Shown piece by piece: positions 1 through 53,820 of a DNA stretch of 64,000 nucleotides. The notes under the pieces were generated by a model. The model searched no databases and was not told the DNA's origin. It was given only the letters and a program-made list of their open reading frames with translations. The translations under genes were made by a program, and so were the position numbers. The first letter of the stretch is position 1; the number at the start of each line of letters is the position of its first letter. This stretch comes from Candidatus Wolfebacteria bacterium RIFOXYD12_FULL_48_21 (GTDB taxonomy: Bacteria > Patescibacteriota > Minisyncoccia > UBA6257 > UBA9933): NCBI GenBank assembly GCA_001793945.1, contig MGIW01000006.1:1584-65583 (forward strand), written 5' to 3'.

Positions 1-30
1 GATGTGAGGTAAGGAAAAGAGAGGTGCGGG
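1..30. repeat. GA-rich low-complexity repeat unit ending in GAGGTGCGGG; near-identical 30-bp copy at 211-240
   Basis: direct reading: gatgtgaggtaaggaaaagagaggtgcggg vs gatgtgagataaggaaaagagaggtgcggg. Confidence 0.8.
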
Positions 31-31
31 G

Positions 32-190
32 ATGACAAAAACGCGTTGTCATCCCGAGTGCAGTGAAGCGAAGCGGAGCGAAATCGACCGCGTGCCGCCA
101 TAGCTTTAGCGGTGGAGCAGGGATCTGCATATTACAGACTCCTTCCGCCAGCCGGCGGACAGGCTTAAGCTCGGAATGACAATACGGGGG
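32..190. repeat. Palindromic GTCATTCC...GGAATGAC modular element (module A gtcatcccgagtgcaNcgaagcgRagcggag; module B cagattccttccgccagccggcggacaggcttaNNctcggaatgacaat)
   Basis: inverted termini gtcatcc/ggaatgac, internal palindrome ccgccagccggcgg; same modules recur at >15 loci in window. Confidence 0.8.
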
Positions 191-240
191 ATGAGAGATA
201 TGAGATATGAGATGTGAGATAAGGAAAAGAGAGGTGCGGG
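191..240. repeat. GA-rich repeat (gatgagagatatgagatatgagatgtgagataaggaaaagagaggtgcggg)
   Basis: direct reading; second copy of 30-bp unit flanking the palindromic element. Confidence 0.8.
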
Positions 241-324
241 TGTTTGACTTTATTTGTAAAAGTTGGTATGGAATAGGCAGGACATAACAATGTAGTTTAT
301 GGTAATACCTACGCAGAGGAGGAA

Positions 325-2028
325 GTGAACATGAAGTTAAGCGATTATGTGATGTGGTTCATCAAGGAGCAGGTTGCGGATACGGTATTCCTGATGTCGG
401 GTGGTGGCATTATGCATTTGGTCGATTCCCTTGGGAAGTCCGACCTGAAGGCAGTTTGCTGTCACCACGAACAGGCTGCGGCGATTGCCGCGGAAGGGTA
501 TGCCCGCATGAAGAATGTTCCGGGTGTCGTGTTGGTAACGACCGGCCCCGGCGGCACGAACGCTTTGACCGGTATTGCCGGCGCATGGCTCGACAGCATC
601 CCTATGCTGGTCATTGCCGGGCAGGTAAAGCGGGCCGACATTACGCCGCGGGAAGATGGCGTGCCTGTGGTGCGGCAAACAGGGTTTCAGGAGTTGAATG
701 TCATCGACATGATGAAACCGATCACCAAATATGCAGTGACGGTTGATAGACCGCAAAGTATCCGGCGTGTCTTGCAAAAGGCGGTCTACCTTGCGACGCA
801 TGGCAGACCCGGGCCGGTGTTTGTGGAAATCCCGCTCGATGCACAGGCTACGGAATTAGATCTTGCCGATTTGGAGGAGTGTGGAAGCTGGTATCCTGCA
901 ATGGATCTTCTGCCGGAGCAATCGGATGCCGTTTTGTGTTTTGCGTATAAAGTTGGACAGCTGTTGCGGAGCGCAAAGCGCCCGCTGTTGATGGCCGGCA
1001 ATGGCATCAGACTTGCGGGTGGTGTGGATGCGCTGAATCGGTTTTTGGAAAAGACATGGGTCAATACGGTTACTCCGATGTTTACCGCGGACGACTTGGT
1101 TACCCGCGATTATCCGTATTATCTTGGACGGCAAGGCATGTCGGGTAACAGGGCGGCGAACTATGCCGTGGATAACTGCGATGTGCTGCTGGTCATCGGC
1201 GAGCGGTTGCAGTTGACCCAAACATCGTACGACCACAAAAACTTCGCCACGCAGGCGACGAAGATCATGGTGGACATTGACTTGGGGGAGTTGCAGAAAA
1301 ACACCCTTTCGATCGATATGCCCATCTGGTGCGATGCAAAAACATTTCTTGAGGCGCTGTGCGCGGAGGATATTGATGTGCTGGCCCCATGGAGTGTACC
1401 TATCGAACGGATCGACCCTGCCGCGCATGAGTGCGCCAAAGGCTACCTCAATGTGTATCGGTTTTTGGAGCGGCTCAATACCTATCCGGACCCGATGCCC
1501 ATTGTAACCGCGAATGGCATGGCGAGTGTTGCTTCGCATCAGGCGCTGACTCTCAAGAACGGACAACGGTTTCTTACCAATGCCGGGCTTGGCCACATGG
1601 GTTCCGGATTGCCGATGGCGATTGGGGCTTGCATTGCAAACGGCTATAAGCCGGTGATCTGCATGGAGGGCGACGGATCCATTATGCTGAACCTGCAGGA
1701 ACTGCAGACGATCGAGCATCACAAACTGCCGATCAAGATCTTCATCTTCAACAACAACGGGTATTATTCCATTCGCAATACGCACCAGAATTATTTCAAC
1801 AATGTGTTCGCGGCCGATTCTACTTCGGGGGTTAGTTTTCCGAGTTTCTACCGGATCGCCCCCGCGTTCGGGTTGCCTATCGTGCGCATTTGCAACGACG
1901 ACGAACTCGACGTGGGACTTGATCAGGTCATGCGACATGGCGGACCTATCGTGTGCGAGTTGGCGCTCGACCCGGCCCAGCCGATGCTGGAGCGGTGGTC
2001 GGCTGGCATGTTGCGCGAAGCGCTGTAG
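325..2028 (+). CDS. ThDP-dependent enzyme, acetolactate-synthase-large-subunit-like (candidate YerE-like two-carbon branch transferase acting on an NDP-4-keto-sugar)
   Basis: 567 aa; N-terminal Pyr domain, central domain, C-terminal ThDP-binding GDGS...NN motif (ICMEGDGSIMLNLQELQT...FIFNNNGY); adjacent to E1 dehydrase gene. Confidence 0.8.
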   Translation: MNMKLSDYVMWFIKEQVADTVFLMSGGGIMHLVDSLGKSDLKAVCCHHEQAAAIAAEGYARMKNVPGVVLVTTGPGGTNALTGIAGAWLDSIPMLVIAGQVKRADITPREDGVPVVRQTGFQELNVIDMMKPITKYAVTVDRPQSIRRVLQKAVYLATHGRPGPVFVEIPLDAQATELDLADLEECGSWYPAMDLLPEQSDAVLCFAYKVGQLLRSAKRPLLMAGNGIRLAGGVDALNRFLEKTWVNTVTPMFTADDLVTRDYPYYLGRQGMSGNRAANYAVDNCDVLLVIGERLQLTQTSYDHKNFATQATKIMVDIDLGELQKNTLSIDMPIWCDAKTFLEALCAEDIDVLAPWSVPIERIDPAAHECAKGYLNVYRFLERLNTYPDPMPIVTANGMASVASHQALTLKNGQRFLTNAGLGHMGSGLPMAIGACIANGYKPVICMEGDGSIMLNLQELQTIEHHKLPIKIFIFNNNGYYSIRNTHQNYFNNVFAADSTSGVSFPSFYRIAPAFGLPIVRICNDDELDVGLDQVMRHGGPIVCELALDPAQPMLERWSAGMLREAL

Positions 2029-2052
2029 ACTACGGCGCGTGAGTTTTACCAA

Positions 2053-2102: not shown

Positions 2103-2448
2103 CAGATTCCTCGACAAGCTCGGAATGACAATGCGGGAAAGGGGAGGGAGATACAAATGACAGCTTTCATTTGTCATCCCGAGCGCAACGAAGCGAAGCG
2201 GAGTGAAGTCGAGAGATCTGTAGTAAAAAGCAGATTCCTTCCGCCAGCCGGCGGACAGGCTTAGACTCGGAATGACAATGCGGGGAGGGTGTCATCCCGT
2301 GCCACGACACGGGATCCAGTGTTTTCTGCAGTGGTAACACGGGGACACCCGAGTGCTGGATACCGGCCGGATCCGTCGGCTGACGGACTGATCCGCCAGC
2401 TGGCGGACGAATGGGCCGGAATGACAATACGGGGAATGACAGAGAAAC
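2103..2448. repeat. Cluster of 3-4 palindromic GTCATTCC/GGAATGAC elements
   Basis: cagattcctcgacaagctcggaatgacaat; gtcatcccgagcgcaacgaagcgaagcggag; ccgccagccggcggacaggcttagactcggaatgacaat; ccgccagctggcggacgaatgggccggaatgacaat. Confidence 0.8.
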
Positions 2449-2471
2449 GCGGGAGTGATAAGATTATTATT

Positions 2472-2945
2472 ATGCTTACTAAAAAAGAGATCGATCAGCT
2501 TGCCGTGCTTTTAAAAAAAATAGACAACCCGCGTGGCGGATTGCCGCAGCCTGTGTTTGATGCGCTCTGTGGCGTTGTGCCGTTCGTTGCGTGTGAGCTT
2601 GCCATTATGAACAAAAAAGGGGAGCTGTTGCTTGCATGGCGGGAGGACCAATGGTGGAAGGGCTGGCATTTCCCCGGAGGGCTGATGCGCCACCGGGAAA
2701 CATTTGATGAGCGCATCAAAGCGACGGCATTGCGGGAGGTTGGTATTGATGTGAAAAAACATTCGTTTCTTTTTCCTATCAATTATTCCGAAGGAAGACG
2801 CGGACCAACGGTGTCACTTGTATTTTTGTGCCATGCAGAAACATCCACGGAGGGCAAGTTTTTTAAGACCATGCCAAAGGATATCATTCCCGAGCATCGG
2901 GAAATGTGGAGGGGGATTCGCAAGGCGATTAGGGATGAGGTGTGA
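2472..2945 (+). CDS. NUDIX-family hydrolase (start moved to internal Met; the ORF-track N-terminus 2289-2471 reads through repeat DNA)
   Basis: Nudix-box-like GGLMRHRETFDERIKATALREVGI; the N-terminal 61 aa of ORF 2289.. are translations of palindromic repeats. Confidence 0.5.
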   Translation: MLTKKEIDQLAVLLKKIDNPRGGLPQPVFDALCGVVPFVACELAIMNKKGELLLAWREDQWWKGWHFPGGLMRHRETFDERIKATALREVGIDVKKHSFLFPINYSEGRRGPTVSLVFLCHAETSTEGKFFKTMPKDIIPEHREMWRGIRKAIRDEV

Positions 2946-3010
2946 GGTGAGAGGTGAGAGGGGGGAGGTGTGAGATGAGAGGTGTGAGATGAGAGATGTG
3001 AGGAGAGAAG
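2938..3010. repeat. GA-rich repeat (gtgagaggtgagagg...gagatgagagatgtgagg)
   Basis: direct reading. Confidence 0.7.
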
Positions 3011-3027
3011 GGGGAGCATGCACTTGA

Positions 3028-3412
3028 GTGTCATCCCCGTCCGCCAGCTGGCGGAGGGATCCAGGGTGCACATGCGAAATACTGGATTCCCGTTTTCACG
3101 GGAATGACAATGCGGGAGGGATAGGGGAAATAACCGATGACTGATAACCGATGACTGATGACGGGGTGCGAGGAGTGTGTCATCCCGAGTGCAACGAAGC
3201 GGAGCGGAGTGAAGTCGAGGGATCTGTAGTTATTGGTGGTGGCAGATTCCTCGACTGTGCGGGGTACCGCGGAGTTTACCCTGAGCTTGTCGAACGGGCT
3301 CGGAATGACAATGCAAAATGCTGGATCTCGGCTTTCCTGCCCGCAGTTGCTACAGCGTTGCAGACGGGTGCAGGAATGACAGAAAGAGGGACAGGAATGA
3401 CAATACAACTCG
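3028..3412. repeat. Cluster of palindromic GTCATTCC elements interleaved with (ATAACCGATGAC)n unit at 3128-3172
   Basis: gtgtcatccccgtccgccagctggcgga; attcccgttttcacgggaatgacaat; gtcatcccgagtgcaacgaagcggagcggag; ctgcccgcagttgctacagcgttgcagacgggtgcaggaatgac (45-bp module repeated at 33320-33375). Confidence 0.8.
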
Positions 3413-3527
3413 TGGGGTGTTGCAAAGGCATTGAACCATTATAAAAAGTTGACAAAGCGGGGCAAATAGGCGATGCTATGGGCAGAAAAGCTTTGTCAAT
3501 TTCATAGATGCATTTAACTGCCTACTA

Positions 3528-4880
3528 TTGAGGAGGAGGTGTGTGATGGCACAAGATCGTGAGAGAATCATCAGTTTTGTGAAAAAGTATCTGAAAGATC
3601 GCCCGCAGCCGGGCCCGTTCATTCCCGGGCAAACGCCCGTGCCAGTTTCCGGCAAGGTTGTAAGCGGACTCGACATGCAGTACATGATCGAAGCGGTGCT
3701 GGACGGACATTGGACGGAAGGCAGGTTTGCTGAAGAATTTGAAGAGAGGCTTGCCTCATTTATTCGTGTACGATATTGTTCCATCGTCAATTCAGGCTCA
3801 TCTGCCAACTTGTTGGCGTTGACCGCATTGACATCGTTTCGTATTCCGGAGGATCGTCGGCTGAAAAAAGGCGACGAGGTCATAACCGTCGCGGCCGGGT
3901 TTCCGACGACCATCAATCCGATCATCCAAAACGGATTGCGGCCGGTGTTCGTTGATATCGAACCGGGAACATACAACGCATCGATCGATTCCATTATGGA
4001 GGCGGTGTCGAGTCGCACAAGAGCGGTATTTCTCGCTCACACGCTTGGCAACCCGTTCGAAGCGCAAACGCTCAGAACGCTGTGCGACGAGCTTGGATTG
4101 TGGCTCGTTGAAGACAATTGCGATGCGCTTGGTACGAAGCACCGCAGTGTGCATACCGGCGCATTTGGGCACTTGTCGACCTGCAGTTTTTATCCTGCCC
4201 ATCATATTACCATGGGGGAAGGGGGCGCGGTGTTGACCGATGACCCGCTGTTGCACAAAATAGTTCGATCGCTGCGCGACTGGGGGCGTGATTGTTCTTG
4301 TGCGACCGGTGCGGACAATGCCTGCGGCAAGCGGTTTACGCAACAGCATGGCGATCTGCCCTACGGGTATGACCATAAATATGTGTACTCCGAACTCGGG
4401 TACAATATGAAGGTCACCGACATGCAGGCGGCGCTTGGGCTGGCACAGCTTGAGCGGTTGCCTACATTCATTCGGCGTCGGCGCGAGAACTTTTCATTTC
4501 TGCATATGTTCTTTCGGGAACTGTATGACTCGTTCATATTGCCGGAGTGGAGCATGCATTCGCAGCCGAGCTGGTTTGGCTATCCGCTGACCATTCGGGA
4601 TACTGCCGGTTTTACGCGGGGCGAACTGTTGAAGTTTCTCGAGCAGAAAAAGATCGGCACGCGCCTGCTGTTCGCGGGCAATGTGACCAATCAACCGTAT
4701 TTCAAGAACTACGATTTCAGGTGGCGTAGCGTAGGGAAAGCGGAGGGGAACCGCATTGTGTTGCCCAACACCGACATTGTCATGGATCGCATGTTCTGGA
4801 TCGGCGTATATCCGGGCCTGAACATTGAAATGATCAACTATGTAACCAAGTCTTTTAAGGAGTTCTTGGCGAGCAGGTAA
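3528..4880 (+). CDS. rfbH: CDP-6-deoxy-D-xylo-4-hexulose-3-dehydrase-like (E1, DdhC/RfbH family; PMP/PLP-dependent DegT fold with Fe-S motif)
   Basis: 450 aa DegT-family; conserved PLP-Lys position replaced by His (SFYPAHHITMGEGG); cysteine pattern NCD...(57)...DCSCATGADNACGK = C-X57-C-X-C-X7-C typical of E1 [2Fe-2S]. Confidence 0.7.
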   Translation: MRRRCVMAQDRERIISFVKKYLKDRPQPGPFIPGQTPVPVSGKVVSGLDMQYMIEAVLDGHWTEGRFAEEFEERLASFIRVRYCSIVNSGSSANLLALTALTSFRIPEDRRLKKGDEVITVAAGFPTTINPIIQNGLRPVFVDIEPGTYNASIDSIMEAVSSRTRAVFLAHTLGNPFEAQTLRTLCDELGLWLVEDNCDALGTKHRSVHTGAFGHLSTCSFYPAHHITMGEGGAVLTDDPLLHKIVRSLRDWGRDCSCATGADNACGKRFTQQHGDLPYGYDHKYVYSELGYNMKVTDMQAALGLAQLERLPTFIRRRRENFSFLHMFFRELYDSFILPEWSMHSQPSWFGYPLTIRDTAGFTRGELLKFLEQKKIGTRLLFAGNVTNQPYFKNYDFRWRSVGKAEGNRIVLPNTDIVMDRMFWIGVYPGLNIEMINYVTKSFKEFLASR

Positions 4881-4902
4881 ATGCACGGTATATCGTTTGT
4901 GA

Positions 4903-4928
4903 AGCCCCGGGAAACTGGGGCTTTTTTG
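4903..4928 (+). terminator. rho-independent terminator (gccccgggaaactggggc + T6)
   Basis: hairpin plus T-run immediately after stop at 4880. Confidence 0.65.
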
Positions 4929-4994
4929 TTGCACGCACATACATTTCTTGTTTTTGCCCTTTTCGTGGCGTACAATTGAGGGGAAATAAACATT

Positions 4995-5080
4995 GAGATA
5001 AGAGATGAGAGAAGTGAAGTGTGAGGGATTTATTCCGCATTCTTCATATCTCCTACCTCCTATCTCTAACCTCTAACTCT
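4995..5080. repeat. Inverted pair: GA-rich repeat (gagataagagatgagagaagtgaagtgtgaggg) followed by its TC-rich complement (tcttcatatctcctacctcctatctctaacctctaactct)
   Basis: direct reading; can form long imperfect hairpin. Confidence 0.7.
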
Positions 5081-5081
5081 T

Positions 5082-7250
5082 ATGGCATTTTTTATCAAAC
5101 TTAGTTTATGGGCGTTGGCATTTGTGCCGCTTATTATTACAGAGTCTGTGTTCTTTCCGTTCATCTTCGGAAAGGTTGTTATGATTCGGGTGTTTGTTGC
5201 GCTTGTATCTATGTTGTTCGCGGTGCATGTCATCGCCGATGCAGAGTTTCGAAGGGGCGTTTATGGCAGACTAAAACTCGTCGCGAAAAATCCGCTCTTT
5301 GTAACAACGACCGCGTTCGTCGCACTATCCATCGCGAGTACCATCTTTGCAGCCAATCCGTTCCGGGCATTTTTTGGCGATGTTGAACGCGGGGAGGGGT
5401 TGACCGGCCTGCTCTATTTCTACGGGTTCTTTGTGTATTCCCTGCTGGTGTTTGAGAAAAAGGATTGGATTTGGTTCTTTCGGCTCAACCTGTTTACCGG
5501 CGTCATTTTGTTTACAAAGGCACTGGTTGAAATAAGCGAAGGTGCCGTGCGGCCGGGGTCGTTTACCGGAAACCCAGCGTTTCTTGGTGGGTATTTCTTG
5601 TTCGTCATTTTTGCCGCGTTGGTTTCTTTCTATTACAGCAAAAAAGAACCTGTATGGAAGTTCTTTTCTGCGGCCATGCTTCCGCTTGGAACCATTGGGC
5701 TTTTCTTGACTCAAACGCGCAGTGCTATGGCCGGACTTGTGGTGGGTGTGTTGGCGCTTATTATCTACGGAGCCTTTCACGGGAAAGCCATTATGCTATG
5801 GAAAGGTTTTTCATTGCGCACTGTGGCGTTTGCCACACTGACTGCGATGATCGTAGTAGGAAGTCTTTTCGGCACCACCAAAGAAAGTCCGCTTTGGCAA
5901 CGCGTTCCCGGATTCAATCGAATCGCAAACTTTACATTTATGGACGCCACCGTGCAAACGCGCTTGATCTCTTTGGGCGTCAGTAAAAATGCCATTGACC
6001 CTGCCAAGAATGGCATGCAGAAGTTTTTGATCGGTTGGGGGCCGGAAAACTTCAGCATTGCGTACAATAAATACTACAACCCTGAATATTACCGATATGA
6101 ACATACATGGTTCGATCGCGCGCATAACAAATTGATGGATGTCGCCGTTATGAACGGCGCGCTTGGGCTGCTTGCCTATATGGGCATGTGGATTTCCGTC
6201 GCGTGGCTCGTGTTCCGCAGAAAGGGCTTTTCGTTCGATATGATGGCGGCGTTGTTCTTTGGCGGCGCATTCTTCTTTAACCTGTTGTTCGTATTTGATC
6301 AGGTATCCACAATCATCCCTTTGTTCGCATTCTTTGCATTTCTTTCTCATGTTTCCACAGTGGAAGATGTGGCGCCTGCGACCGGAAAGGAGAAAAAAGC
6401 GTACGCCATTGCCGGCATGCGGGAATACGCAACTTATGGCTCGTTTGGCGCGGCGGGCTTGTTCTTCACATGGGCGCTTATCTTTTGGACGATCGTCCCG
6501 TATTCACAAATGAGCACCTATCTTACGGCTATTGGAACCAAAAATGTGGCGGGGATCCTGCAAAATCCGGAAGCCATATTTGAACCATATACATTCGCAC
6601 AGCAGGATATCCGCGGACACTTCTTGAACGGATTGACCCAATATTACGGCAAGGCGCCACAGTTAAATCCGTTAATTGATGATTCCATCCGACGCATGGA
6701 AGAGCTGATTGCAAAGGAACCAACCAATCCGCGCTATTTTTTGATGATTGCCGGTGCCTATGATCGCAGAGCCCGCGCGGGTGATGGGTTGGACTATTTC
6801 AAAAAAGCGGAGGTGTATTACCACAAGGCCGGCGAACTTGCGCCGATGCGCCAAGATGTCATGTATGCGATCGCATTTAACCTTTCGTTCCAAGGGCGGA
6901 CCGATGAAGCGATAGCGGTATTGCGCACTGTGCTGACGGTCGACGATGTGTCTCCGGAAACCCATTACTTCCTCGGCGCCATACTTAGTGAAAAGGGAGG
7001 GGATTATCGGGAAGCGCTCAAGGAAATGGAGATCGCTATGAGCAGTCCTACCTATATCAATTTCAGAGATGAGCAGACGGTGAATATTTATCAACTTTTT
7101 CTGAAGCGTACATACGCCGCGCGGGATAAGGATAACTTTCTCATCGTTGCAAAACGGCTTGAAATCGTCGACCCTGAGCAGGCTGAAATGGCGCGGCAGA
7201 TGGAAGATATGGTAAGAAAAGGGCAGTGGCCCGCGATCAACTTCAACTAA
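5082..7250 (+). CDS. O-antigen ligase (Wzy_C) family membrane protein with C-terminal TPR domain
   Basis: 722 aa, ~10 TM helices, Wzy_C-like motif FLTQTRSAMAGLVVG; C-terminal ~250 aa soluble TPR-like repeats. Confidence 0.7.
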   Translation: MAFFIKLSLWALAFVPLIITESVFFPFIFGKVVMIRVFVALVSMLFAVHVIADAEFRRGVYGRLKLVAKNPLFVTTTAFVALSIASTIFAANPFRAFFGDVERGEGLTGLLYFYGFFVYSLLVFEKKDWIWFFRLNLFTGVILFTKALVEISEGAVRPGSFTGNPAFLGGYFLFVIFAALVSFYYSKKEPVWKFFSAAMLPLGTIGLFLTQTRSAMAGLVVGVLALIIYGAFHGKAIMLWKGFSLRTVAFATLTAMIVVGSLFGTTKESPLWQRVPGFNRIANFTFMDATVQTRLISLGVSKNAIDPAKNGMQKFLIGWGPENFSIAYNKYYNPEYYRYEHTWFDRAHNKLMDVAVMNGALGLLAYMGMWISVAWLVFRRKGFSFDMMAALFFGGAFFFNLLFVFDQVSTIIPLFAFFAFLSHVSTVEDVAPATGKEKKAYAIAGMREYATYGSFGAAGLFFTWALIFWTIVPYSQMSTYLTAIGTKNVAGILQNPEAIFEPYTFAQQDIRGHFLNGLTQYYGKAPQLNPLIDDSIRRMEELIAKEPTNPRYFLMIAGAYDRRARAGDGLDYFKKAEVYYHKAGELAPMRQDVMYAIAFNLSFQGRTDEAIAVLRTVLTVDDVSPETHYFLGAILSEKGGDYREALKEMEIAMSSPTYINFRDEQTVNIYQLFLKRTYAARDKDNFLIVAKRLEIVDPEQAEMARQMEDMVRKGQWPAINFN

Positions 7251-7261
7251 TGATCATACAT

Positions 7262-7290
7262 AAAAATAACGCTTAAGGCGTTATTTTTAT
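7262..7290 (+). terminator. rho-independent terminator (aaaataacgcttaaggcgttatttt)
   Basis: perfect hairpin with flanking A/T runs after stop 7250. Confidence 0.65.
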
Positions 7291-7296
7291 GTGTGG

Positions 7297-7326
7297 TTGA
7301 CACCTTTTGACACCTTTTGATACAAT
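7297..7326 (+). promoter_or_regulatory. sigma70-like promoter: TTGACA (duplicated) - 18 nt - TACAAT
   Basis: ttgacaccttttgacaccttttgatacaat upstream of 7364 gene. Confidence 0.4.
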
Positions 7327-7330
7327 GTAT

Positions 7331-7363
7331 GGGTAATTTGAAGTTTTTAATTTAGAATTTAAA
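7331..7363. repeat. AT-rich boundary element GTAATTTGAAGTTTTTAATTTAGAATTTAAA (family GTAATTTGAAATTTAGAATT)
   Basis: 5 related copies: 7331, 7717, 15803, 58013, 60686. Confidence 0.75.
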
Positions 7364-7720
7364 ATGAATGAGAATGCATATAATCTTGAGCAGCGAACGC
7401 GAGAGTTTTCTGTTCAGGTAATACGATTTCTTAAAACATTACAACAGGATACTATAAGCAGGCCGATTATTGGTCAACTAATACGGTCTGCTACCAGTGT
7501 CGGTGCAAATTATTGTGAGGCAAATGGGGCAAGCTCAAAAAAAGATTTTTGCAATAAAATATTTATTTGCAAAAAAGAGGCCAAAGAAACACATTATTGG
7601 CTTGATCTTATCGAAGAATGTTGCGGATATAAGAAGGAGCTTAATCATTTAAGAAATGAATGTGTCGAGCTGATTAGAATATTTTCTAAAATAGCCGCAA
7701 GTAGCAAAGAGGAGAGGTAA
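7364..7720 (+). CDS. four-helix-bundle protein (23S rRNA intervening-sequence protein family, TIGR02436-like)
   Basis: 118 aa; signature SATSVGANYCEANGASSKKDF...KEAKETHYWL; two paralogs at 22429 and 63131. Confidence 0.8.
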   Translation: MNENAYNLEQRTREFSVQVIRFLKTLQQDTISRPIIGQLIRSATSVGANYCEANGASSKKDFCNKIFICKKEAKETHYWLDLIEECCGYKKELNHLRNECVELIRIFSKIAASSKEER

Positions 7721-7775
7721 TTTGAAATTTAGAATTTTTAATTTATATTTTCAAATTTCGAATTTCAAATTGTAA
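7717..7775. repeat. AT-rich boundary element (ggTAAtttgaaatttagaatttttaatttatattttcaaatttcgaatttcaaattg); supplies stop codon of 7364..7720
   Basis: direct repeat of element at 7331. Confidence 0.75.
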
Positions 7776-7787
7776 ATTATCCAATGT

Positions 7788-8033
7788 ATGTCTGAAATTC
7801 TACCTAACGAAGTGTATACGACCGGGGAGGCTGAGGCTCTCTTAAAAGTGAGCAACAGCACCATGAAGCGTCTTTTGAAAAAGGGGCTCCTTCGGGCAAA
7901 CAAAGTGGGTGGGCAATACAGGATATTGGGGCATGAATTGTTGCGATTGCTTTCGCCTGAGGTAGATCAAAAGGCGACCGATCTGTATCAAAAGGTAAAG
8001 ACCATAACAAGGGAGGCGACCAAACACTGGTAA
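7788..8033 (+). CDS. helix-turn-helix DNA-binding protein (excisionase/MerR-like HTH_17 family)
   Basis: 81 aa, TGEAEALLKVSNSTMKRLLKKGLLRANKVGGQYRI matches excisionase-family HTH. Confidence 0.55.
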   Translation: MSEILPNEVYTTGEAEALLKVSNSTMKRLLKKGLLRANKVGGQYRILGHELLRLLSPEVDQKATDLYQKVKTITREATKHW

Positions 8034-15808: not shown

Positions 15809-15852
15809 TTTGAAATTTAGAATTTTAAATTTTAAATTTATAATTTTATATA
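15803..15852. repeat. AT-rich boundary element (gggtaatttgaaatttagaattttaaattttaaatttataattttatat)
   Basis: same family as 7331/7717. Confidence 0.75.
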
Positions 15853-20280: not shown

Positions 20281-20454
20281 GGAGCGGCTCTTATAGAGGT
20301 AATGATACCGTAAAAAGGGAGTGGGTTAAAGAGGAAAATTTGAGATTAGATGTATGAGATGAGAGATTGGAGGGTAAGGGCTAACTTTATAAAGTTATGA
20401 GTATTTTGACTAACATTTATAATGTTTGAGCATGTGCGAAATTCTTAGTATGCT

Positions 20455-35742: not shown

Positions 35743-35842
35743 TGCCAAGTGTAGTAATCGAGAGTCGTCAGGTTGTCGTGGTGTAGGATGCTAGTACATT
35801 GCCTTGACCTTTTGTACTATAATAGCTATACAGACCATACAT

Positions 35843-40721: not shown

Positions 40722-40817
40722 GGGGGGTATTTTGGGGAGTTTGACCGAGTGGGCGGAATGGCAAATAGCCCCATTCCACGGCTTTATTCTTTATACGGTA
40801 TACCGTATACTAAGCGT

Positions 40818-41792
40818 ATGGCCAGGGTTATTGCGGTATACAACCAAAAGGGGGGAGTGGCAAAAACGACGACATGTGTAAACCTGTCGGCGTACCTGGC
40901 GCTTGAAGGAAAAAAAGTCTTGTTGATTGATTTTGATCCGCAGGCCAATGCGAGTTCCGGTTTGGGCCATCCTGCAAAATTGAATGAGGGCAGTATTTAT
41001 CACGGCTTGTTCGGTCTTGCCGAGCCCGATGCGCTCACCAAGCCGACCATTTTTTATAATTACCATCTTATCCCGTCGAGCCAGCATCTTGCTGGTGCGC
41101 TTATCGAATTGGTAAACATCCCTGAGCGGGAGCATAAGTTGCGACAGTTTATCGACAAGATACGCGACAAATATGACTATATATTCATCGACATGCCGCC
41201 GTCTTTGAGCCTGTTGACCATCAACGGGTTGGTTGCTGCCGACGAAATAGTCATTCCGGTGCAGAGTCATTACTTTAGTATGGAAGGGTTGAGTCAGTTG
41301 CTCGAGATTATCGAACTGGTTCATAAAAATATTTCCACACGGGGGCTAAAGGTATCGGGTGCCGTCATGACCATGTTCGACGAAAACGAACCGTTGTCCC
41401 ATAAGATCGCCGGCGACATTGCGGCGAGTTTTCCACATAATGTCTTTAAGACGCGCATCCCGCGTTCCTCCGCCCTTTCCGAGGCGCCGAGCTATGGTCG
41501 CCCGGTCATTTTGCACGATCCAAACTCCACCGGTGCGCGTGCATACGAACAACTCGCAAAAGAATTGATCGCGCAGGAAACGCCCAAGCAGTTTCAGATG
41601 CCCAGTCAAATGGTTTCCGCGGTCGAGCCAAAGCAAGAACAGATCGTAACCCCGTTGCCAAACGAATCGGATATTTTGATAGACATAAAACCGCAGTCGC
41701 AGCCTGAGCAACCACCCGTTGTAGCGACGGAAGCTCCGATCCGTGATGAAGCCCTTCGACAGGCTCAGGGTGATTCCACTTTTTATTTTTAG
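40818..41792 (+). CDS. parA: chromosome partitioning ATPase ParA/Soj with long Pro/Gln-rich C-terminal extension
   Basis: MARVIAVYNQKGGVAKTTT deviant Walker A; start moved to this Met. Confidence 0.8.
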   Translation: MARVIAVYNQKGGVAKTTTCVNLSAYLALEGKKVLLIDFDPQANASSGLGHPAKLNEGSIYHGLFGLAEPDALTKPTIFYNYHLIPSSQHLAGALIELVNIPEREHKLRQFIDKIRDKYDYIFIDMPPSLSLLTINGLVAADEIVIPVQSHYFSMEGLSQLLEIIELVHKNISTRGLKVSGAVMTMFDENEPLSHKIAGDIAASFPHNVFKTRIPRSSALSEAPSYGRPVILHDPNSTGARAYEQLAKELIAQETPKQFQMPSQMVSAVEPKQEQIVTPLPNESDILIDIKPQSQPEQPPVVATEAPIRDEALRQAQGDSTFYF

Positions 41793-46002: not shown

Positions 46003-46101
46003 CAGATTCCTCGTCCGCCGGCTGGCGGATCGGAATGGCAATGCAACATGCTGGATTCCCGCCTCCGCGGGAATGACAGAGAGATGGATGGGAATGACAC
46101 C
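46003..46101. repeat. palindromic elements (cagattcctcgtccgccggctggcggatcggaatggcaat; gattcccgcctccgcgggaatgacagagagatggatgggaatgacac)
   Basis: direct reading; forms spurious N-terminal extension of ORF 45938.. Confidence 0.8.
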
Positions 46102-46141: not shown

Positions 46142-47887
46142 ATGAGGATCACCAATGCCGAGATCGCACAATTGTTGAGTGAAATAGCGGAATATCTTGA
46201 AATGGACGATGTGCTATTTAAGCCGCGTGCGTACCAAAAGGTGGCAGATGCCATCGCGGCTTTGGATGAAGAAATTGTCGAGATCCATAAAAAGGGCGGT
46301 TTAAAAGCAGTTAGCAGTATTCCCGGTGTGGGCGCTTCCATTGCAAAAACGATCGAAGAATACATACAAACGGGACGCATCGCCCAATACGAAGAATTGA
46401 AGAAAAAGATCCCTGTCGATCTGCGTAGTTTGACGGCGGTCGAAGGCTTGGGCCCGAAGAAGATCAAGAAATTGTACAAGGCGCTTGATGTTAAAACTTT
46501 GGACGATCTGGAAAAGGCGGCGGCCTCGGGCGCGCTTGCAAAAGTGGAAGGATTTGGCGCGAAGTCGGTGGAGAATATTTTGAAAGGGATCGAATTTGTA
46601 AAGACATCGGGAGGCCGACTTATTTTGGGCAATGCATTTCCCGTGATCGAATATATCAGGGACGGACTTGCGAAAGTCAAAGGAGTGGAGCGCGTGGATA
46701 TTGTTGGTTCGGCGCGGCGGAAAAAGGAAACGGTGGGCGATTTTGACCTGTTGGTCATTGCGAAAGATTCCGGCCCTGTGATGCACTTTTTTGTGCATAT
46801 GGACGAGGTTGTGCTCGTACATGCGCAAGGCGAAACAAAAGCTTCGGTGCGCATTAAGGCGGGCATCGATGTGGATGTTCGCGTTGTCGCGCGGGAATCA
46901 TATGGCGCCGCGCTGTTGTATTTTACCGGGTCAAAGGCGCACAATGTCGCCTTGCGGCAAATGGCCATTAAAAAAGGGTTGAAGCTGAACGAATATGGAC
47001 TGTTCCGCATGAAGGGAGGGAAGGAAGAAAAGATGATCGCTGGCGATACGGAGGAGGGTATTTATAACGCATTGGGTCTTACCTATGTGGAGCCGGAAAT
47101 GCGCGAAGATGTCGGAGAACTTGAGCTTGCACAAAATCATAAACTGCCGGTATTGGTCGATTACGATGCCATGAAAGGAGATATGCAGATGCATACCAAC
47201 TGGAGCGATGGCGCAAATACGATCGAGGAGCTTGCTTATGCGGCCATGGCTTTGGGTTTGGAATATATTGTCATTACGGATCATACGAAGCGATTGACCG
47301 TTGCCAACGGGCTTGATGAGACCCGACTGCTTGAGCATATGAAAGCGGTTGATGCAGTAAATGCGAAACTGAAAAAAGAAGGGAAGAAGTTCACCGTACT
47401 TAAAGGGAGCGAAGTGGACATTTTGAAGGATGGATCCCTCGACATGTCCGATGCAGTTTTGGCGAAGCTGGATGTGGCGGGTGCCTCGGTGCATTCGTAT
47501 TTTAACTTGCCGCGCGAAGCGCAAACGAAACGCATTATTGCTGCTATGGAAAATCCGCATGTGGATATCATTTTTCATCCGACGGGGCGGGTCATTAACA
47601 GGCGACCTGCATATGATGTAGATATGGATGCCATTATCGAGGCGGCGAAGCGCACCAAGACGGTGCTCGAGATCAATGCATTTCCCGATCGGCTCGATCT
47701 TAAAGATGAATATGTACGCAAGTGCGTACGCGCGGGAGTAAAGTTGTCCATCGGTACCGATGCGCATGCCATCGCGCATTTGTCGTATCTTGCGTGGGGT
47801 GTGGGGCAGGCCCGCAGGGGTTGGGCGGAGCGAAGCGATATTGTGAATGCATGGCCTGTGGAGAAGATGAAGAAGATGCTTAAATAA
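46142..47887 (+). CDS. polX: DNA polymerase X family protein with C-terminal PHP phosphoesterase domain (PolX); start moved to MRITNAEIAQLL (alternative Met at 46094 lies inside repeat)
   Basis: HhH motifs (GVGASIAKTIEE, GLGPKKIKKLY), pol-beta-like nucleotidyltransferase GSARRKKETVGDFDLLV, PHP His-rich C-terminus. Confidence 0.8.
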   Translation: MRITNAEIAQLLSEIAEYLEMDDVLFKPRAYQKVADAIAALDEEIVEIHKKGGLKAVSSIPGVGASIAKTIEEYIQTGRIAQYEELKKKIPVDLRSLTAVEGLGPKKIKKLYKALDVKTLDDLEKAAASGALAKVEGFGAKSVENILKGIEFVKTSGGRLILGNAFPVIEYIRDGLAKVKGVERVDIVGSARRKKETVGDFDLLVIAKDSGPVMHFFVHMDEVVLVHAQGETKASVRIKAGIDVDVRVVARESYGAALLYFTGSKAHNVALRQMAIKKGLKLNEYGLFRMKGGKEEKMIAGDTEEGIYNALGLTYVEPEMREDVGELELAQNHKLPVLVDYDAMKGDMQMHTNWSDGANTIEELAYAAMALGLEYIVITDHTKRLTVANGLDETRLLEHMKAVDAVNAKLKKEGKKFTVLKGSEVDILKDGSLDMSDAVLAKLDVAGASVHSYFNLPREAQTKRIIAAMENPHVDIIFHPTGRVINRRPAYDVDMDAIIEAAKRTKTVLEINAFPDRLDLKDEYVRKCVRAGVKLSIGTDAHAIAHLSYLAWGVGQARRGWAERSDIVNAWPVEKMKKMLK

Positions 47888-48075
47888 CCTACAACCGACA
47901 ACTAACGACCTATAACGGGATGCAAAGGTTGTCATTCCGGCCTACGAGCCGGAATCTCATGAAAAAATCATGGGATTATAGATCAAGAAATTTGAAAATT
48001 AATGACATTTAATGTCGTTAAAAATATGCGGGTGCTATTGTCGACGAGATCCCGGGTCAAGCCCGGGATGACAAA
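47887..48075. repeat. (ACAACCGACAACTAACGACCTATAAC)GGGATGC unit followed by palindromic element fragments (ttgtcattccggcctacgagccggaat; gatcccgggtcaagcccgggatgacaa)
   Basis: direct reading. Confidence 0.7.
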
Positions 48076-48794: not shown

Positions 48795-49973
48795 ATGAAA
48801 AACCTTTCCGCATTGTACGACCGGAATCTTTCCGAAGAGATCGTCATCGTTCGCGTCGATCTGAATATTAATAACAAGACCTTGCGTGTAAGCGGGCCTA
48901 ATTTGCGCGTCACCTCCATTATCCCAACGATCAAATTCTTGACCAAGCGTGGCGCAAAGGTCGTGCTGGTCAGCCATCGGGGAAGACCGGCTGGCGTAAC
49001 CAATAACCAACGACCAATAACCGATAACATAAAAGAATTTACATTGAAACCGTTTGCGAAGATCCTTGGTGGATTACTGAAGAAAGATGTTTCGTTTATT
49101 CCGCACGATACGAAAGAATATCGTTTGTTTTCGGATGCGAGCGCCGAGAAGATCAAAAAAGCCTCAAAGGGTTCCGTGTTCCTGCTTGAAAACATGCGTT
49201 TCTTTGCCGGCGAAGAGAAGAACGACCCCGCCGTCGTGCGTCCGCTTGCGGAGCTGGGTACATTTTATGTGAATGACGCATTTGCCGTCAGTCATCGCAA
49301 GAACGCTTCGGTGGTCGCCATCACCAAGCTATTGCCTTCGTGCGCGGGGCTTCTGTTGGAAAAGGAAGTGTTTCATATGGACGAAGCAATCAATAACCAT
49401 AAACATCCGTTTGTGGTCATTTTGGGTGGCGCAAAAATGACCGACAAGATGGGGCTGATCAAGCGCTTTATCGGCAAAGCCGATTACTTTCTCGCGGGGG
49501 GTGGCGTGGCCAATACATTTTTTGCGGCCGACGGCCTGCCGATCGGCGATTCCATTTATGAATCGCACATGATCCCCGTTGCAAAAAAGATCATGAAAAC
49601 GAACAAGGTCATTATGCCTATGGATGTTGCCATTTTCGAACGAAAGATCGTAGACAACGGCCCGGGAACGACCGACGAGTGGGTGGAGATCATCAAAAAC
49701 GCAAAGACGATCATTTGGAATGGGCCGGTAGGCGTTATTGAAAACAAAAAATTTGCCAAGGGTTCCGTTGGCATTGCGCAGGCCATCGCCAAGAGCAAGG
49801 CGTTTTCTGTGGTGGGTGGTGGTGAAACAGCACTTGCCTTTACAGGCGTTCCGCTTAAAAAGAACACATTTCTTTCTACGGGGGGTGGTGCGATGTTGGA
49901 GTACCTTTCTGGCATCAAGCTGCCTGGAATAGAGGCGCTGCGCGAGAAAAAAGGAAAAGGAAAAAAGAAATAA
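48795..49973 (+). CDS. pgk: phosphoglycerate kinase carrying an in-frame (ATAACC)-repeat insertion
   Basis: 392 aa; VRVDLNI, SHRGRP, VFLLENMRFFAGEEKNDP, YVNDAFAVSHR motifs; between GRP and EFTLKPF sits GVTNNQRPITDNIK encoded by aaccaataaccaacgaccaataaccgataac. Confidence 0.9.
   Translation: MKNLSALYDRNLSEEIVIVRVDLNINNKTLRVSGPNLRVTSIIPTIKFLTKRGAKVVLVSHRGRPAGVTNNQRPITDNIKEFTLKPFAKILGGLLKKDVSFIPHDTKEYRLFSDASAEKIKKASKGSVFLLENMRFFAGEEKNDPAVVRPLAELGTFYVNDAFAVSHRKNASVVAITKLLPSCAGLLLEKEVFHMDEAINNHKHPFVVILGGAKMTDKMGLIKRFIGKADYFLAGGGVANTFFAADGLPIGDSIYESHMIPVAKKIMKTNKVIMPMDVAIFERKIVDNGPGTTDEWVEIIKNAKTIIWNGPVGVIENKKFAKGSVGIAQAIAKSKAFSVVGGGETALAFTGVPLKKNTFLSTGGGAMLEYLSGIKLPGIEALREKKGKGKKK
48998..49029. 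repeat. (ATAACCRAYRAC)n repeat embedded in frame in pgk
   Basis: sequence matches intergenic repeat units at 25262-25420. Confidence 0.75.
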
Positions 49974-49978
49974 GGAAA

Positions 49979-51052: not shown

Positions 51053-51580
51053 CCGCTATGTCGGTAGGGAGGCGATTACCTTTTTGCTTCGGCAAAGGGG
51101 AGGAAGGTCCGGACACTCATTTGTCCCACCGATCAGGCCAATGTCTTGCGGCAACGGTTGAAGCAACCGCGCTACCGCTTCGTGTTGTCGTGGGATGTTG
51201 ATCTGATCGGTGGGATATCTAACAAGATAGCGGCTAACAGCCGTCGGGAGCGATCCTCGAGGTGCGAGCAGAGACGCCGCAATTTGAAAAAATTGCGGGC
51301 CCTGTACCGCATGGTACAGGGTAGCTCTTATGGAAACATAGGAGGTGAAACGGCTAAATCCTTATCGGGTGCAAGGTCGTACTCTTGTCCTTCGGACAAG
51401 AACTTATAACCAATGACCTATAACTAATAACGGGAATTCTCGTTATGAGTTAATGGTCATGAGTTTTTGGTTCTTGCCCGGAGGGCAGGGGGGTACCGCA
51501 CGAACTTTGGAGCGATCCAAGGTCCAGATACATTATCGTCGAGACACAGAATCCGGCCTATCACCTGCCGATATAGCGGT
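51053..51580 (+). ncRNA. rnpB: RNase P RNA (bacterial type) containing a ~70-nt (ATAACC)-family repeat insertion at 51397-51470
   Basis: P4 strands GGAGGAAGGTCCGGACACTC and ACAGAATCCGGCCTA; terminal P1 pairing ccgctatgtcggtagggagg / cctatcacctgccgatatagcgg; followed by terminator. Confidence 0.75.
51397..51470. repeat. (ATAACC)-family hairpin element inside rnpB (cttataaccaatgacctataactaataacgggaattctcgttatgagttaatggtcatgag)
   Basis: shares ataaccaatgac / ataactaataac words with intergenic repeats; internal palindromes ataacg..cgttat and tgacc..ggtca. Confidence 0.6.
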
Positions 51581-51785: not shown

Positions 51786-53141
51786 TCAAATAAACGATAC
51801 CAATAGTGCAATAGCAAATATTGCCATGATCGCGAATGCCGTCCACAGGCCCAGCTTTGAAAGCCATCCGCTTTTGTATTCTCCCATAACATCCTCCCGG
51901 CTCGAGATGCGTGCTATGAGGAAAATGAGCGGTACGGCTGCTATGCCGTTAAACACCGCCGTAAAGACAAGCGCCTTGATGGGATTGAAGCCGATGAAAT
52001 TAAACAGTAGTCCTGCCAAGGTGCCAAAGATGATCACGAAATAGAAATTGCGCGATTGCCGAAACTTTCTATACAGTCCTTCGCGCCAACTGAACGTTTC
52101 CGCCACGGCATAGGCCGAGGAGCCTGCGAGAACGGGAATGCTTTGCAGTCCTATGCCGATGATACCTATGGCAAAGATTAGCTTTGCGAGGAAGCCGGCG
52201 TTGGGAAATGTATGTACGAGCGGTTCGAGCGCGCGAGCGGCATCGGCAGCTGTTTCTATTGTAGTAATGCCTGCTTGGTTTAGTACTACGGCGCCTACGA
52301 TGATGATGAACCATGCGGTGACATTGGAAAATAGCATGCCGATGGCCGTATCGATACGCAACCGTTTTAGGTACGATCGTGTAAGATGGGGGATGCCGCC
52401 GCGCTGAGGGAGTCTATGGTTTGCTATTTCTTCCTCTACGACATTGCTTGTCTGCCAAAAAAACAAATAGGGTGAAATGGTCGTGCCGAAAATGGCAACA
52501 ATGATATAAAGGTATGTGGCACTCCACTCCACGCGCGGCGTGAAGGTTGCCTTGAGTACTGTGAGCCACGGAACATCAATCAAAAAAGCGGTGATGAAAT
52601 AGGCAAACAAGGCCATCGACAGCCACTTCAAGATGCGGATGTATGTCCGATAGGAAATAAATACCTCGAGCAATATGATGAGCAGTGCAAAGGCGATTGC
52701 GAGTAGCGGGAATGGCAGCGCAGGCACGAGCAATTCCGCGCTGGCGGCCATTGCACCGATGTCCGAGCCGATGTTAAGCGTGTTGGCAAGCACCACCAGC
52801 CCGACAACCGGGTAGAGTATTTTTTTCGGATAATGTTCGCGTACCGCCGCGGCCAAACCCTTGCCTGTAATGGCTCCTATGCGCATGCACGCTTCCTGTA
52901 CCGCTGTCATGAGCGGATAGGTAACAAGCATGGTCCACGGCATTTGAAAACCGAATTGTGCGCCTGCTTGCGAGTAGGTTGCGATGCCCGACGGATCGTC
53001 GTCAGCCGCGCCCGTTACGATGCCGGGGCCAAGGATCCGCAAAAAGCGGCTGAACCGTTTCAGACGCTTATGCTCTACGGGTTTTTCTTCCACTTTTTGC
53101 CCTACTGCCTCGTTGAGTATTTCGTCGGGGAACTGGACCAT
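51786..53141 (-). CDS. mntH: Nramp-family divalent metal (Mn2+/Fe2+) transporter
   Basis: 451 aa, 11 TM, N-terminal GPGIVTGAADDDPSGIATYSQAGAQFGF Nramp signature. Confidence 0.85.
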   Translation of the reverse strand: MVQFPDEILNEAVGQKVEEKPVEHKRLKRFSRFLRILGPGIVTGAADDDPSGIATYSQAGAQFGFQMPWTMLVTYPLMTAVQEACMRIGAITGKGLAAAVREHYPKKILYPVVGLVVLANTLNIGSDIGAMAASAELLVPALPFPLLAIAFALLIILLEVFISYRTYIRILKWLSMALFAYFITAFLIDVPWLTVLKATFTPRVEWSATYLYIIVAIFGTTISPYLFFWQTSNVVEEEIANHRLPQRGGIPHLTRSYLKRLRIDTAIGMLFSNVTAWFIIIVGAVVLNQAGITTIETAADAARALEPLVHTFPNAGFLAKLIFAIGIIGIGLQSIPVLAGSSAYAVAETFSWREGLYRKFRQSRNFYFVIIFGTLAGLLFNFIGFNPIKALVFTAVFNGIAAVPLIFLIARISSREDVMGEYKSGWLSKLGLWTAFAIMAIFAIALLVSFI

Positions 53142-53169
53142 ATGCGATAATTATACTGGAAAACATGAA

Positions 53170-53208
53170 TAAAAAATACCGACTGGCTGAGCCAGTCGGT
53201 ATTTTTTA
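53170..53208. terminator. bidirectional rho-independent terminator (aaaaaataccgactggctgagccagtcggtatttttt)
   Basis: perfect hairpin flanked by A-run and T-run. Confidence 0.6.
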
Positions 53209-53225
53209 TATTGAAGTCGTGTGAC

Positions 53226-53582
53226 TTAGTAGCTGCTGCGATATCCACCGCCGAAGCCTCCTCGTCCACCACGGTCTCCGCCACGTCCTCCGCCGAAGCC
53301 ACCGCCTCCGCCTTCACGGCGAGGTGCGCGCTCTTCCATCGGACGAGCAACGTTCACGGTCAAAGAACGTCCTTCGAAGTCCTTTCCGTTGAACATGTCG
53401 ATCGCTTTCTCGGCGTCCTCATCGGATGCCATTTCTACAAAGCCAAAACCCTTCGAGCGGCCGGTCATCTTATCGATGATGATCATGGCTGACTCTACGG
53501 TTCCTGCCTGGGAGAACAGATCGTTCAATGCGTCTTGGGTGGTTGCATACGGCAATCCACCTACGTATAATTTTTTGCCCAT
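53226..53582 (-). CDS. RRM-type glycine-rich RNA-binding protein
   Basis: KLYVGGLPY (RNP2) and KGFGFVEM (RNP1); C-terminal RGG/GGG tail. Confidence 0.8.
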   Translation of the reverse strand: MGKKLYVGGLPYATTQDALNDLFSQAGTVESAMIIIDKMTGRSKGFGFVEMASDEDAEKAIDMFNGKDFEGRSLTVNVARPMEERAPRREGGGGGFGGGRGGDRGGRGGFGGGYRSSY

Positions 53583-53776
53583 ATTGAGATAGTATATTTA
53601 ATTCTGTAAGTCGACCCTTCTCATAGGCCTCGAGAGCGCATAAAACAAAAACGTTTTACCTTCATTATCCACATCCGCTACAGCAGTTCAGGATTGGAAG
53701 CAAACTGAGAAAACTTACTGTTCACAGTATAAACCACCTCTCTATAAATAGCAAATGGCGTTGGGGGGGAGGGGGG

Positions 53777-53820
53777 ATAACTGATGACTGATGACTAATG
53801 ACCGATGACGGGATGCGGGG
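53777..53820. repeat. (ATAACTGATGAC)n repeat ending GGGATGCGGGG
   Basis: gataactgatgactgatgactaatgaccgatgacgggatgcgggg; preceded by G-tracts. Confidence 0.75.

Follow-up and report, generated by a model that had tools for sequence, protein, structure and literature searches.

A 64-kb stretch of DNA from a Candidatus Wolfebacteria bacterium (Parcubacteria, candidate phyla radiation (CPR)) of Rifle aquifer groundwater, here called the window, contains numerous degenerate short-period tracts. These tracts are tandem heptanucleotide arrays. We consider it likely that they behave as insertional, slippage-prone DNA and, as inverted pairs, form the ends of cassettes carrying genes of the PF05635 family. 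The arrays change length in 7-nt steps and appear or disappear at given spacers between close relatives. They land where an insertion is tolerated, namely in spacers, in a loop of the RNase P RNA and in a surface loop of PGK, and at least one cassette (22366-22855) is a precise insertion between adjacent genes. We infer that the arrays are self-renewing DNA, maintained by slippage and dispersal, rather than signals for gene starts. The tracts belong to the known class of heptanucleotide repeats and thus represent nothing new in kind. Over the overlaps (27.2-49.9 kb), six independent same-species assemblies are 99.8-100% identical to the window, which indicates that the features are not assembly artefacts; identical copies of the ClpB protein encoded in the window are found on the ENA scaffold ANAN16-1 scaffold_31 and in GCA_001793975.1, and NCBI assigns the TrxB protein to Candidatus Wolfebacteria bacterium RIFOXYD1_FULL_48_65. 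Syntenic loci from relatives were used for comparison, including L127-L129 (TrxB identity 75-85%), L210-L212 (PGK identity 77-84%) and L213-L216 (PilC identity 85-96%).

The period of the tracts is 7 nt. In a self-match scan of the window, which used 28-nt segments and a threshold of at least 21 matches, 156 positions were found at lag 7, 132 at lag 14, five at lag 8 and none at lags 2-6 and 9-13. Tandem Repeats Finder returned periods 7 and 14 throughout. The first-pass annotation of this DNA had read the tracts as 6-mer and 12-mer repeats, which is wrong: in register, its (GAGRTG)n is GAGRTNN (GA-type) and its (ATAACCRATRAC)n is ATRACNN. Every tract it listed is present and its two kinds are real, but they are only two of at least five heptamer flavours, the others being AATTTNN (five sites), GTATACN (three) and AGTTCAC (two); GAAAAAG arrays, also previously unlisted, occur in addition. 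Each unit is composed of four to five fixed and two to three free positions. Patterns of four to five units of the three main flavours have 11, 11 and 9 matches, compared with 0.00 in shuffles, in agreement with the earlier view that the tracts are not random microsatellites. About 27 arrays of head-to-tail heptamers are dispersed over the window, and about 26 of them are located outside protein-coding sequence or touch only the last codons of a gene, the exception being an insertion in pgk. Solo arrays of each flavour have one constant strand orientation within the window. A CRISPR array is ruled out, as the units are 7 nt long and contiguous, whereas CRISPR repeats of 24-48 nt alternate with unique spacers. 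Rfam at the gathering score gives no match at the arrays of the window, and no rRNA was found in the window by the Rfam scan. All arrays and cassettes described below lie on the + strand, apart from the inverted arrangements at 4995-5079, 7716-7783 and 51406-51470, which carry no strand assignment.

All three PF05635/TIGR02436 genes of the window, starting at 7364, 22429 and 63131, are bracketed by inverted arrays of the same flavour. Their products match PF05635 with E-values of 5e-18 to 5e-39, all three match TIGR02436, weak matches to Avd are present, and PADLOC finds no defence-system match for these proteins. PF05635 proteins are relatives of Avd, the nucleic-acid-binding protein of diversity-generating retroelements. 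Each cassette has its own flavour, two of these flavours also occur as solo arrays, and all three cassettes sit between protein genes, not in an rRNA helix. Particularly, cassette 2 is a 490-nt block (22366-22855) located exactly where three relatives have the corA junction TGAT/ATG with a 1-nt spacer. It consists of a GA arm (22366-22399), the PF05635 gene (22429-22809) and a TC arm (22811-22852), which is the GA type in reverse complement; the termini of the block read TGTGAGAT...ATCTCACA, and the two arms pair with each other. In cassette 1, an AATTT-type array (7333-7365) forms the upstream arm of a gene for a four-helix-bundle protein (7364-7720), and forward and reverse AATTT-type arrays, together forming a hairpin, are located downstream (7716-7783). 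Cassette 3 (63095-63503) contains an AGTTCAC-type arm (63095-63121), the gene (63131-63484) and an inverted arm (63473-63503). It lies between pilC and a pseudopilin gene, where four relatives lack any gene, and its spacer is not alignable with those of the relatives. In cassettes 1 and 3 the inversion of the arms was recognised by reading the sequence and scores weakly in the arm-pairing test. Both inverted GA/TC pairs of the first-pass annotation are confirmed, the arms at 22366 and 22811 being those of cassette 2 and the other pair being gene-less (4995-5079, GA arm 4995-5030, TC arm 5040-5079).

The association extends beyond the window. Metagenome contigs were scanned with the PF05635 alignment, and 73 diverse PF05635 genes were compared with 309 other genes from the same loci. 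An inverted-repeat score of at least 26 is reached at 52 of the 73 PF05635 genes (71%) and at 10 of the 309 controls (3%). A period-7 signal is present upstream of 46 and downstream of 48 PF05635 genes (63-66%), compared with 52 and 61 of the controls (17-20%). The flavours of these cassettes are very diverse and all different. At least six of the seven flavour positions are shared by 63% of pairs with 60-80% protein identity, compared with 2-5% of pairs below 50%, and this rise of flavour similarity with protein identity indicates joint inheritance of gene and arms. From their outer ends towards the gene, the arms are G-rich and C-poor, with AG in 77 of 89 units (15 on the opposite strand) and AGT or AGG in most units. 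The G-rich arm comes first in 45 cassette-sized inverted pairs and second in 6; for gene-less pairs the numbers are 33 and 5. The arrangement of a gene within inverted arrays recurs on plasmids of Nostoc PCC 7120, N. punctiforme and Riemerella anatipestifer. Most plasmid matches come from Nostoc and Calothrix, the genera in which heptamers of the short tandemly repeated repetitive (STRR) type were first described. Moreover, a Verrucomicrobia metagenome-assembled genome (Pedosphaerales, locus L115) has three PF05635 genes within 6 kb (2300-8000). Two of them (2348-2767 and 5327-5626) each have inverted heptamer flanks of their own flavour, while the third (7634-7999) reaches the end of the locus, with only its downstream array visible.

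Arrays are also widespread without such genes. A scan with one genome per species found at least 120 stretches of (GAGRTNN)x5, from over 10 phyla, and arrays of other flavours accompany them at most loci. The hosts include Verrucomicrobiota, Planctomycetota, Bacteroidota, Chloroflexota, Cyanobacteria, Acidobacteriota, Gemmatimonadota, Gammaproteobacteria and others. That GA arrays elsewhere adjoin PF05635 genes was considered and rejected, since the loci of the matches listed, 839 kb in all, contain three PF05635 open reading frames (ORFs), all at one locus. The link is therefore one-way, from gene to arrays and not the reverse. The idea that all inverted pairs are cassettes was likewise rejected, as wider pairs often bracket ordinary genes (minD, hypB, dedA). 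The association of PF05635 with heptamer arrays appears to be new: a literature search, with subscription journals outside its coverage, found no relevant work linking PF05635/TIGR02436 to repeats.

Comparison with the relatives reveals gain, loss and length change of arrays at defined positions. Array bases amount to 162 per 10 kb in the window and 0-88 in the relatives, and in close relatives of the Wolfebacteria host the corresponding spacers hold few arrays or none. The GA-type array at 30897-30943, located between the tsf stop codon and the tsf terminator hairpin, is kept at the same place in L129, where it is exactly one 7-nt unit longer (44 nt versus 37 nt here, counted after the stop codon) and differs at many free positions. 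The spacer between the - strand GT4 glycosyltransferase and flippase genes is 2 nt long in L129 and contains a GA-type array of 14 units here (18566-18665), which closes in GAGATGCGAGG. At the GIY-YIG spacer, an AATTT-type array adjoins the gene start here (60685-60721), a GTATAAG array is found in L215 and L216, and no array is present in L214. In addition, three successive ATAAC-type arrays (25262-25401) make up a lineage-specific block of about 130 nt between an SPW gene and grx (glutaredoxin). Five AATTT arrays at dispersed sites begin with the common start GGGTAATTTGAAATTTAGAATT, identical over 18-22 nt, which favours dispersal over five independent local origins. At the position of the 100-nt GA array of the glycosyltransferase/flippase spacer, L127 carries a PemK-family toxin gene with hairpin-element flanks (4161-4577), again between glycosyltransferase and flippase genes.

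Some arrays lie inside genes. The tract at 48998-49029, recorded earlier without its context, is within the pgk coding sequence, where 21 nt of ATAACC-type heptamers (GTAACCA ATAACCA ACGACCA) are inserted in frame into the loop after SHRGRP. The same loop contains GAAAAAG x5 in L211 (array at 6195-6246) and no array in L210 and L212; this surface loop is a recurrent, tolerated landing site. A GAAAAAG-type array further along pgk (49943-49978) encodes the Lys/Gly-rich C-terminal tail of PGK and is present in relatives too. In assemblies L002 and L003 pgk is called as two fragments, and the array may be the cause. The tract at 51405-51440 falls within the RNase P RNA gene (RF00010, 51060-51576, + strand). 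In the P12 region of this RNA, an ATAAC array, a short loop and a complementary GTTAT array form a gene-less inverted pair (51406-51470), compared with a 16-nt hairpin in three relatives. This heptamer hairpin is one reason why the gene scores 76 bits, under the gathering score of 100. A second insertion of about 100 nt is found near 51145-51245, and standard annotation would miss the gene.

Paired arms form long stems, in which helices of 5-6 bp are broken every 7 nt by the unpaired free positions. Their folds reach -29.8 (4995-5079), -35.1 (51406-51470) and -47.3 kcal/mol, with z = -3.3, -8.1 and -6.9, respectively. Solo arrays as structured RNA were rejected (z = -0.25 and +1.3), and so was a link to replication through GA orientation tracking the local GC skew (62 of 108 agree, p = 0.15). 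The stems might let the insert loop out or be cut from the transcript, which would make the insertion harmless, as in intervening sequences (IVS) of rRNA. Gene-less pairs and solo arrays may be either derivatives of cassette arms or independent expansions, and the G-first polarity may reflect a purine-rich leader for the enclosed gene.

The shared terminal word RTGCGRGG, which the first-pass annotation had singled out, shows no enrichment over the window as a bare 8-mer (14 matches versus 11.0 +/- 3.1 expected), but it is strand-biased (12 copies on +, 2 on -) and closes the intergenic ATRAC segments. In the form AC-GRG-RTGC-RRR, it ends all six of these segments at a constant distance behind the last unit, against an expectation of about 0.06. 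Three of the six closings are one base off the strict word; the copy at 25347 has a final A, and the copy at 47920 reads ATGCAAAG. The same ending is found in three GA arrays (24, 233 and 18651). It also divides the three successive arrays within 25262-25401, each of which is closed by GRGATGCGRGG. In register, the closing word is equivalent to a GA-type unit, or to two of them (GAGATGC GAGGG..), at the end of the ATRAC array. Moreover, it resembles the tail GGAATGACAATGCGGGG of a nested hairpin family with arms GTCATYCC and GGAATGAC, and a similar tail GGAATGACAATGCGGGRRGG stands behind many right arms of this family. The word may thus serve as a fixed closing module, or shared boundary, of these mosaics.

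The hairpin family has variable inner stems and 42 arm motifs in 64 kb, and looks similar to the repetitive extragenic palindromic (REP) elements of many bacteria. Its members adjoin heptamer arrays and are located at 1-300, 2100-2460, 3030-3410, 30090-30400, 33060-33330 and elsewhere. Pieces of the family are also found in frame inside coding sequence, at 36793-36850 (ORF 35837-37114) and 46055-46100 (polX ORF). In a cysteine desulfurase the in-frame piece encodes DSRLRGNDRGEGGNDNTKE, with successive GGAATGAC copies 21 nt apart.

The remaining arrays occupy a variety of positions. Among the GA-type arrays, the array end at 1-31 adjoins a hairpin element and closes in GAGGTGCGGGG, the GAGATNN array at 191-240 closes in GAGGTGCGGGT, about 11 units at 2930-3010 begin in the last codons of a NUDIX gene (stop at 2945), and about 6 units at 20335-20385 lie in a divergent spacer. 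A G-rich degenerate tract at 20150-20235 contains two copies of GGGTGCGRGTAG about 50 nt apart. The ATRAC-type array at 3128-3173 (ATAACCG/ATGACTG) is located between two hairpin elements and closes in GGGGTGCGAGG. An ATAAC-type array directly follows the polX stop codon (47887-47931), closes in GGGATGCAAAGG and is followed by a hairpin element; in a strain variant this array is of equal length with many substitutions. An ATGAC-type array (53777-53820) closes in GGGATGCGGGG and ends 16 nt before a start codon. The solo AATTT-type array at 15803-15853, which has the common start of its flavour, lies between two + strand genes, and the one at 58018-58046 ends in the unit AATGACA, which is the left arm of a hairpin element. 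Arrays of the GTATA type are found at 24212-24235 (short, overlapping a -10-like box), at 25693-25722 (GTATACN, between the grx terminator and the trxB start) and at 40793-40812 (short GTATACN, upstream of a parA-like gene), while an array with a 14-nt period (GTTGTTAGTTATRG) is located upstream of an M3 peptidase gene (33396-33426).

Several further features of the window were recorded. TATAAT- or TATACT-like boxes stand 7-20 nt before several start codons (24225-24260, 25410-25433, 25730-25750 and 40800-40818), which suggests very short or absent leaders, and arrays of the GTATAC flavour overlap such boxes. A 153-nt tandem repeat (27827-28866, 6.7 copies, 78% matches) lies inside a 503-aa ORF (27716-29227) and is the sole place where assembly L001 departs from the window. 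An ORF of 197 aa (31687-32280) beside tRNA-Tyr and tRNA-Thr genes has only faint matches to LAGLIDADG_3 and DUF3606.

If the arrays were plain microsatellites, chance proto-repeats would have expanded by slippage on the spot, there would be no dispersal, and the link to PF05635 would be incidental. The indels in 7-nt steps fit this account, and a 7-nt step in slippage is reportedly favoured by the polymerase, as Mrazek is said to have noted in 2007. The flavours vary between genomes and between sites, as on-the-spot expansion would have it, and the GTATA-type arrays that overlap -10-like boxes look locally seeded. The identical starts of the five AATTT arrays and the closing word common to the ATRAC arrays stand against local origin, and an incidental link to PF05635 is hard to reconcile with the precise insertion of arms together with gene, the 71% versus 3% frequency of same-flavour inverted arms, the tracking of protein identity by flavour and the strong G-first polarity of inverted pairs. 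We regard on-the-spot slippage as unlikely to account for the arrays.

An alternative that gives the PF05635 protein an active part is that each paralogue recognises its own flavour, on its arms and on solo arrays alike, and that the arrays would thereby constitute a genome-wide network of cognate binding sites. Each cassette of the window indeed has a private flavour, in two cases also present as solo arrays; flavour similarity rises with protein identity, and the weak Avd matches point in the same direction. The correlation is, however, also explained by common descent of gene and arms, the window has no PF05635 gene to match the ATRAC and GTATAC flavours, and most heptamer-rich loci elsewhere have no PF05635 gene nearby. 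The predicted network is improbable as an explanation of the arrays, although the idea of binding is compatible with their being insertional DNA.

Less probable still is a role as cis-regulatory signals, in which the arrays would be binding sites of a translational regulator such as the S1, Csp or CsrA proteins, or Shine-Dalgarno-like GAGG tracts that attract or retain ribosomes, with RTGCGRGG as the functional end. The GA units contain GAGGTG, the complement of the 3' end of 16S rRNA. A second species has the tsf 3' array at the same place and with the same periodicity, and the upstream arms of PF05635 genes are purine-rich, often with AGGAG. A regulatory role has also been proposed for the TAACTGA repeats (MacGregor 2015, PMC4679880). 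The first-pass annotation placed the terminal word frequently some tens of bases upstream from a start codon and listed a transcription or translation signal among its candidates. Only two or three copies (25394, 53813 and perhaps 233) are so placed, 16-35 nt before the start codon. Most arrays lie after stop codons, next to genes of either orientation, or between - strand genes and nevertheless + oriented (18566, 58018); others are inside the RNase P RNA and pgk, and the orthologous spacers of relatives have no arrays or arrays of another flavour. The arrays are moreover of at least five unrelated flavours. Elsewhere, the 69 GA arrays with genes called on both sides fall into 27 (+,+), 19 (-,-), 16 convergent and 7 divergent contexts, which is not the pattern of promoters or leaders. 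The start-signal reading thus fits poorly. The candidate of a mobile-element remnant or recombination site, proposed alongside it, fares better in that the arrays show insertional behaviour, but no insertion machinery was identified.

Finally, the arrays could in principle be scars of repair, in which a short template is copied reiteratively onto both 3' ends of a double-strand break before the ends are joined, in some cases with a gene captured between them; the geometry this predicts (two inverted arrays of one flavour, G-rich strand 5' to 3' towards the centre) fits the 78:11 polarity and the missing target duplication, and the 5+2 structure of the units may resemble the degenerate products of reiterative synthesis, but the scheme is without a known candidate enzyme and leaves unexplained both PF05635 as the usual cargo and the common starts seen among solo arrays, the polarity is accounted for equally well by selection for a purine-rich leader, and we consider it highly improbable.

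Insertional, slippage-prone DNA with PF05635 cassettes accordingly remains our preferred account, and several observations weigh against it. At most 1 nt is shared as a target-site duplication at the 22366/22855 junctions, and the ORFs scanned in the 64 kb yielded no transposase and no other machinery for insertion. The GAGR periodicity of the tsf 3' array is kept across species, which could signal a function. Assemblies L001 and L004-L006 do not differ at the arrays 30897, 33396, 40780, 47887 and 48995, and only L003 departs, by substitutions; this identity across four to five assemblies indicates that slippage is slow on population time scales, and phase variation within the population was rejected, as the same-species assemblies show no copy-number variation. 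Mismatches in the arms have no G.U bias (38 sense versus 41 antisense), with an excess of G.U-compatible changes on neither strand, and so give no positive evidence for selection of a stem at the RNA level. In addition, the scarcity of PF05635 ORFs near arrays makes the descent of solo arrays from cassettes a conjecture.

The arrays are closest to the STRR sequences and related heptamer repeats. As in those, the unit is 7 nt long, the units are arranged head to tail, and the arrays are dispersed, mostly intergenic and of several units per genome; the PF05635 genes on Nostoc and Calothrix plasmids are flanked by such arrays. STRR in the strict sense are found in heterocystous cyanobacteria, with the units CCCCAGT, TTGGTCA and CAACAGT, whereas the window comes from a Wolfebacteria host and has other units. 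Mrazek et al. reportedly described heptamer 'long simple sequence repeats' from many bacteria in 2007. In contrast to the near-perfect units of STRR and long simple sequence repeats, the GAGRTNN, ATRACNN and AATTTNN units of the window have two to three free positions, and its arrays have a fixed closing word, are interleaved with a hairpin family and reside in a CPR host.

TAACTGA repeats are known from Beggiatoaceae, Cyanobacteria and Bacteroidetes (PMC4679880). As with the window arrays, other heptamers are mixed in, strains differ by indels of 7 nt and close relatives lack the repeats; a role of heptamers in gene rearrangement has been considered possible (MacGregor 2015, PMC4679880). Shifted to another register, the ATRAC arrays become TRACYGA; this degenerate form is found 10 times within arrays, and exact TAACTGA only once (53778). 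Most sets of 'Maribeggiatoa' are in forward orientation and precede a start codon by a few nt (the BOGUAY pattern), while here only the array at 53777-53820 is near a start and the others lie after stops or between hairpin elements. GGGAATC/GGGGAYT heptamers with G-quadruplex potential, including inverted pairs, have been described from Xanthomonas and Nostoc (Rehm 2015, PMC4692102). Like these, the window arrays are intergenic heptamers that include inverted stem-loop pairs and vary in length among related strains, but apart from a few closing Gs they do not have the G3-4 runs of a quadruplex. Terminal inverted repeats, gene-less derivatives, dispersed copies and presence or absence among relatives are shared with miniature inverted-repeat transposable elements and with REP doublets forming hairpins (REPINs). 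In the window, however, the arms are cassette-specific tandem heptamers and not one conserved terminal inverted repeat, and the junctions of cassette 2 and the scanned ORFs offer neither a target duplication nor a transposase.

IVS of the 23S rRNA in Leptospira and Coxiella carry a PF05635 ORF. Similar to the window cassettes, they consist of a small PF05635 gene within pairing inverted repeats, are embedded in a transcription unit of the host and occur sporadically across relatives; the gene-less pair of the window is likewise located in a structural RNA, that of RNase P. The cassettes differ in lying between protein genes, outside any rRNA helix. IVS of rRNA are cut from the transcript by RNase III. 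To our knowledge, the arms of rRNA IVS have not been described as heptamer arrays. PF05635 has also been found in rRNA insertions of CPR bacteria, where it was described as functionally uncharacterised (PMC11270868).

These likenesses lead to a wider proposal, which we advance with rather less than even confidence. PF05635/TIGR02436 genes would generally travel in cassettes with inverted, cassette-specific heptamer ends, the G-rich arm leading; the rRNA IVS with PF05635 would be a special case, and the STRR-type arrays of cyanobacteria, Bacteroidota, Verrucomicrobiota, CPR and others would be the arms, gene-less derivatives and debris of such cassettes. Bacterial heptamer tandem repeats have been recognised since 1990, and in many genomes no long simple repeat is commoner; PF05635 is a very common protein family. 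The combination of a gene with inverted arms, a polarity rule and empty-site comparisons provides a handle on both. Nostoc PCC 7120, Riemerella and Xanthomonas are tractable hosts, in which mobility, RNA processing and binding of the protein to the repeats can be tested. The arrays also affect the annotation of CPR genomes, where they lengthen or split genes and push the RNase P RNA under the Rfam threshold. If the proposal is true, the cassettes would represent a widespread type of insertional element that has gone unrecognised until now.

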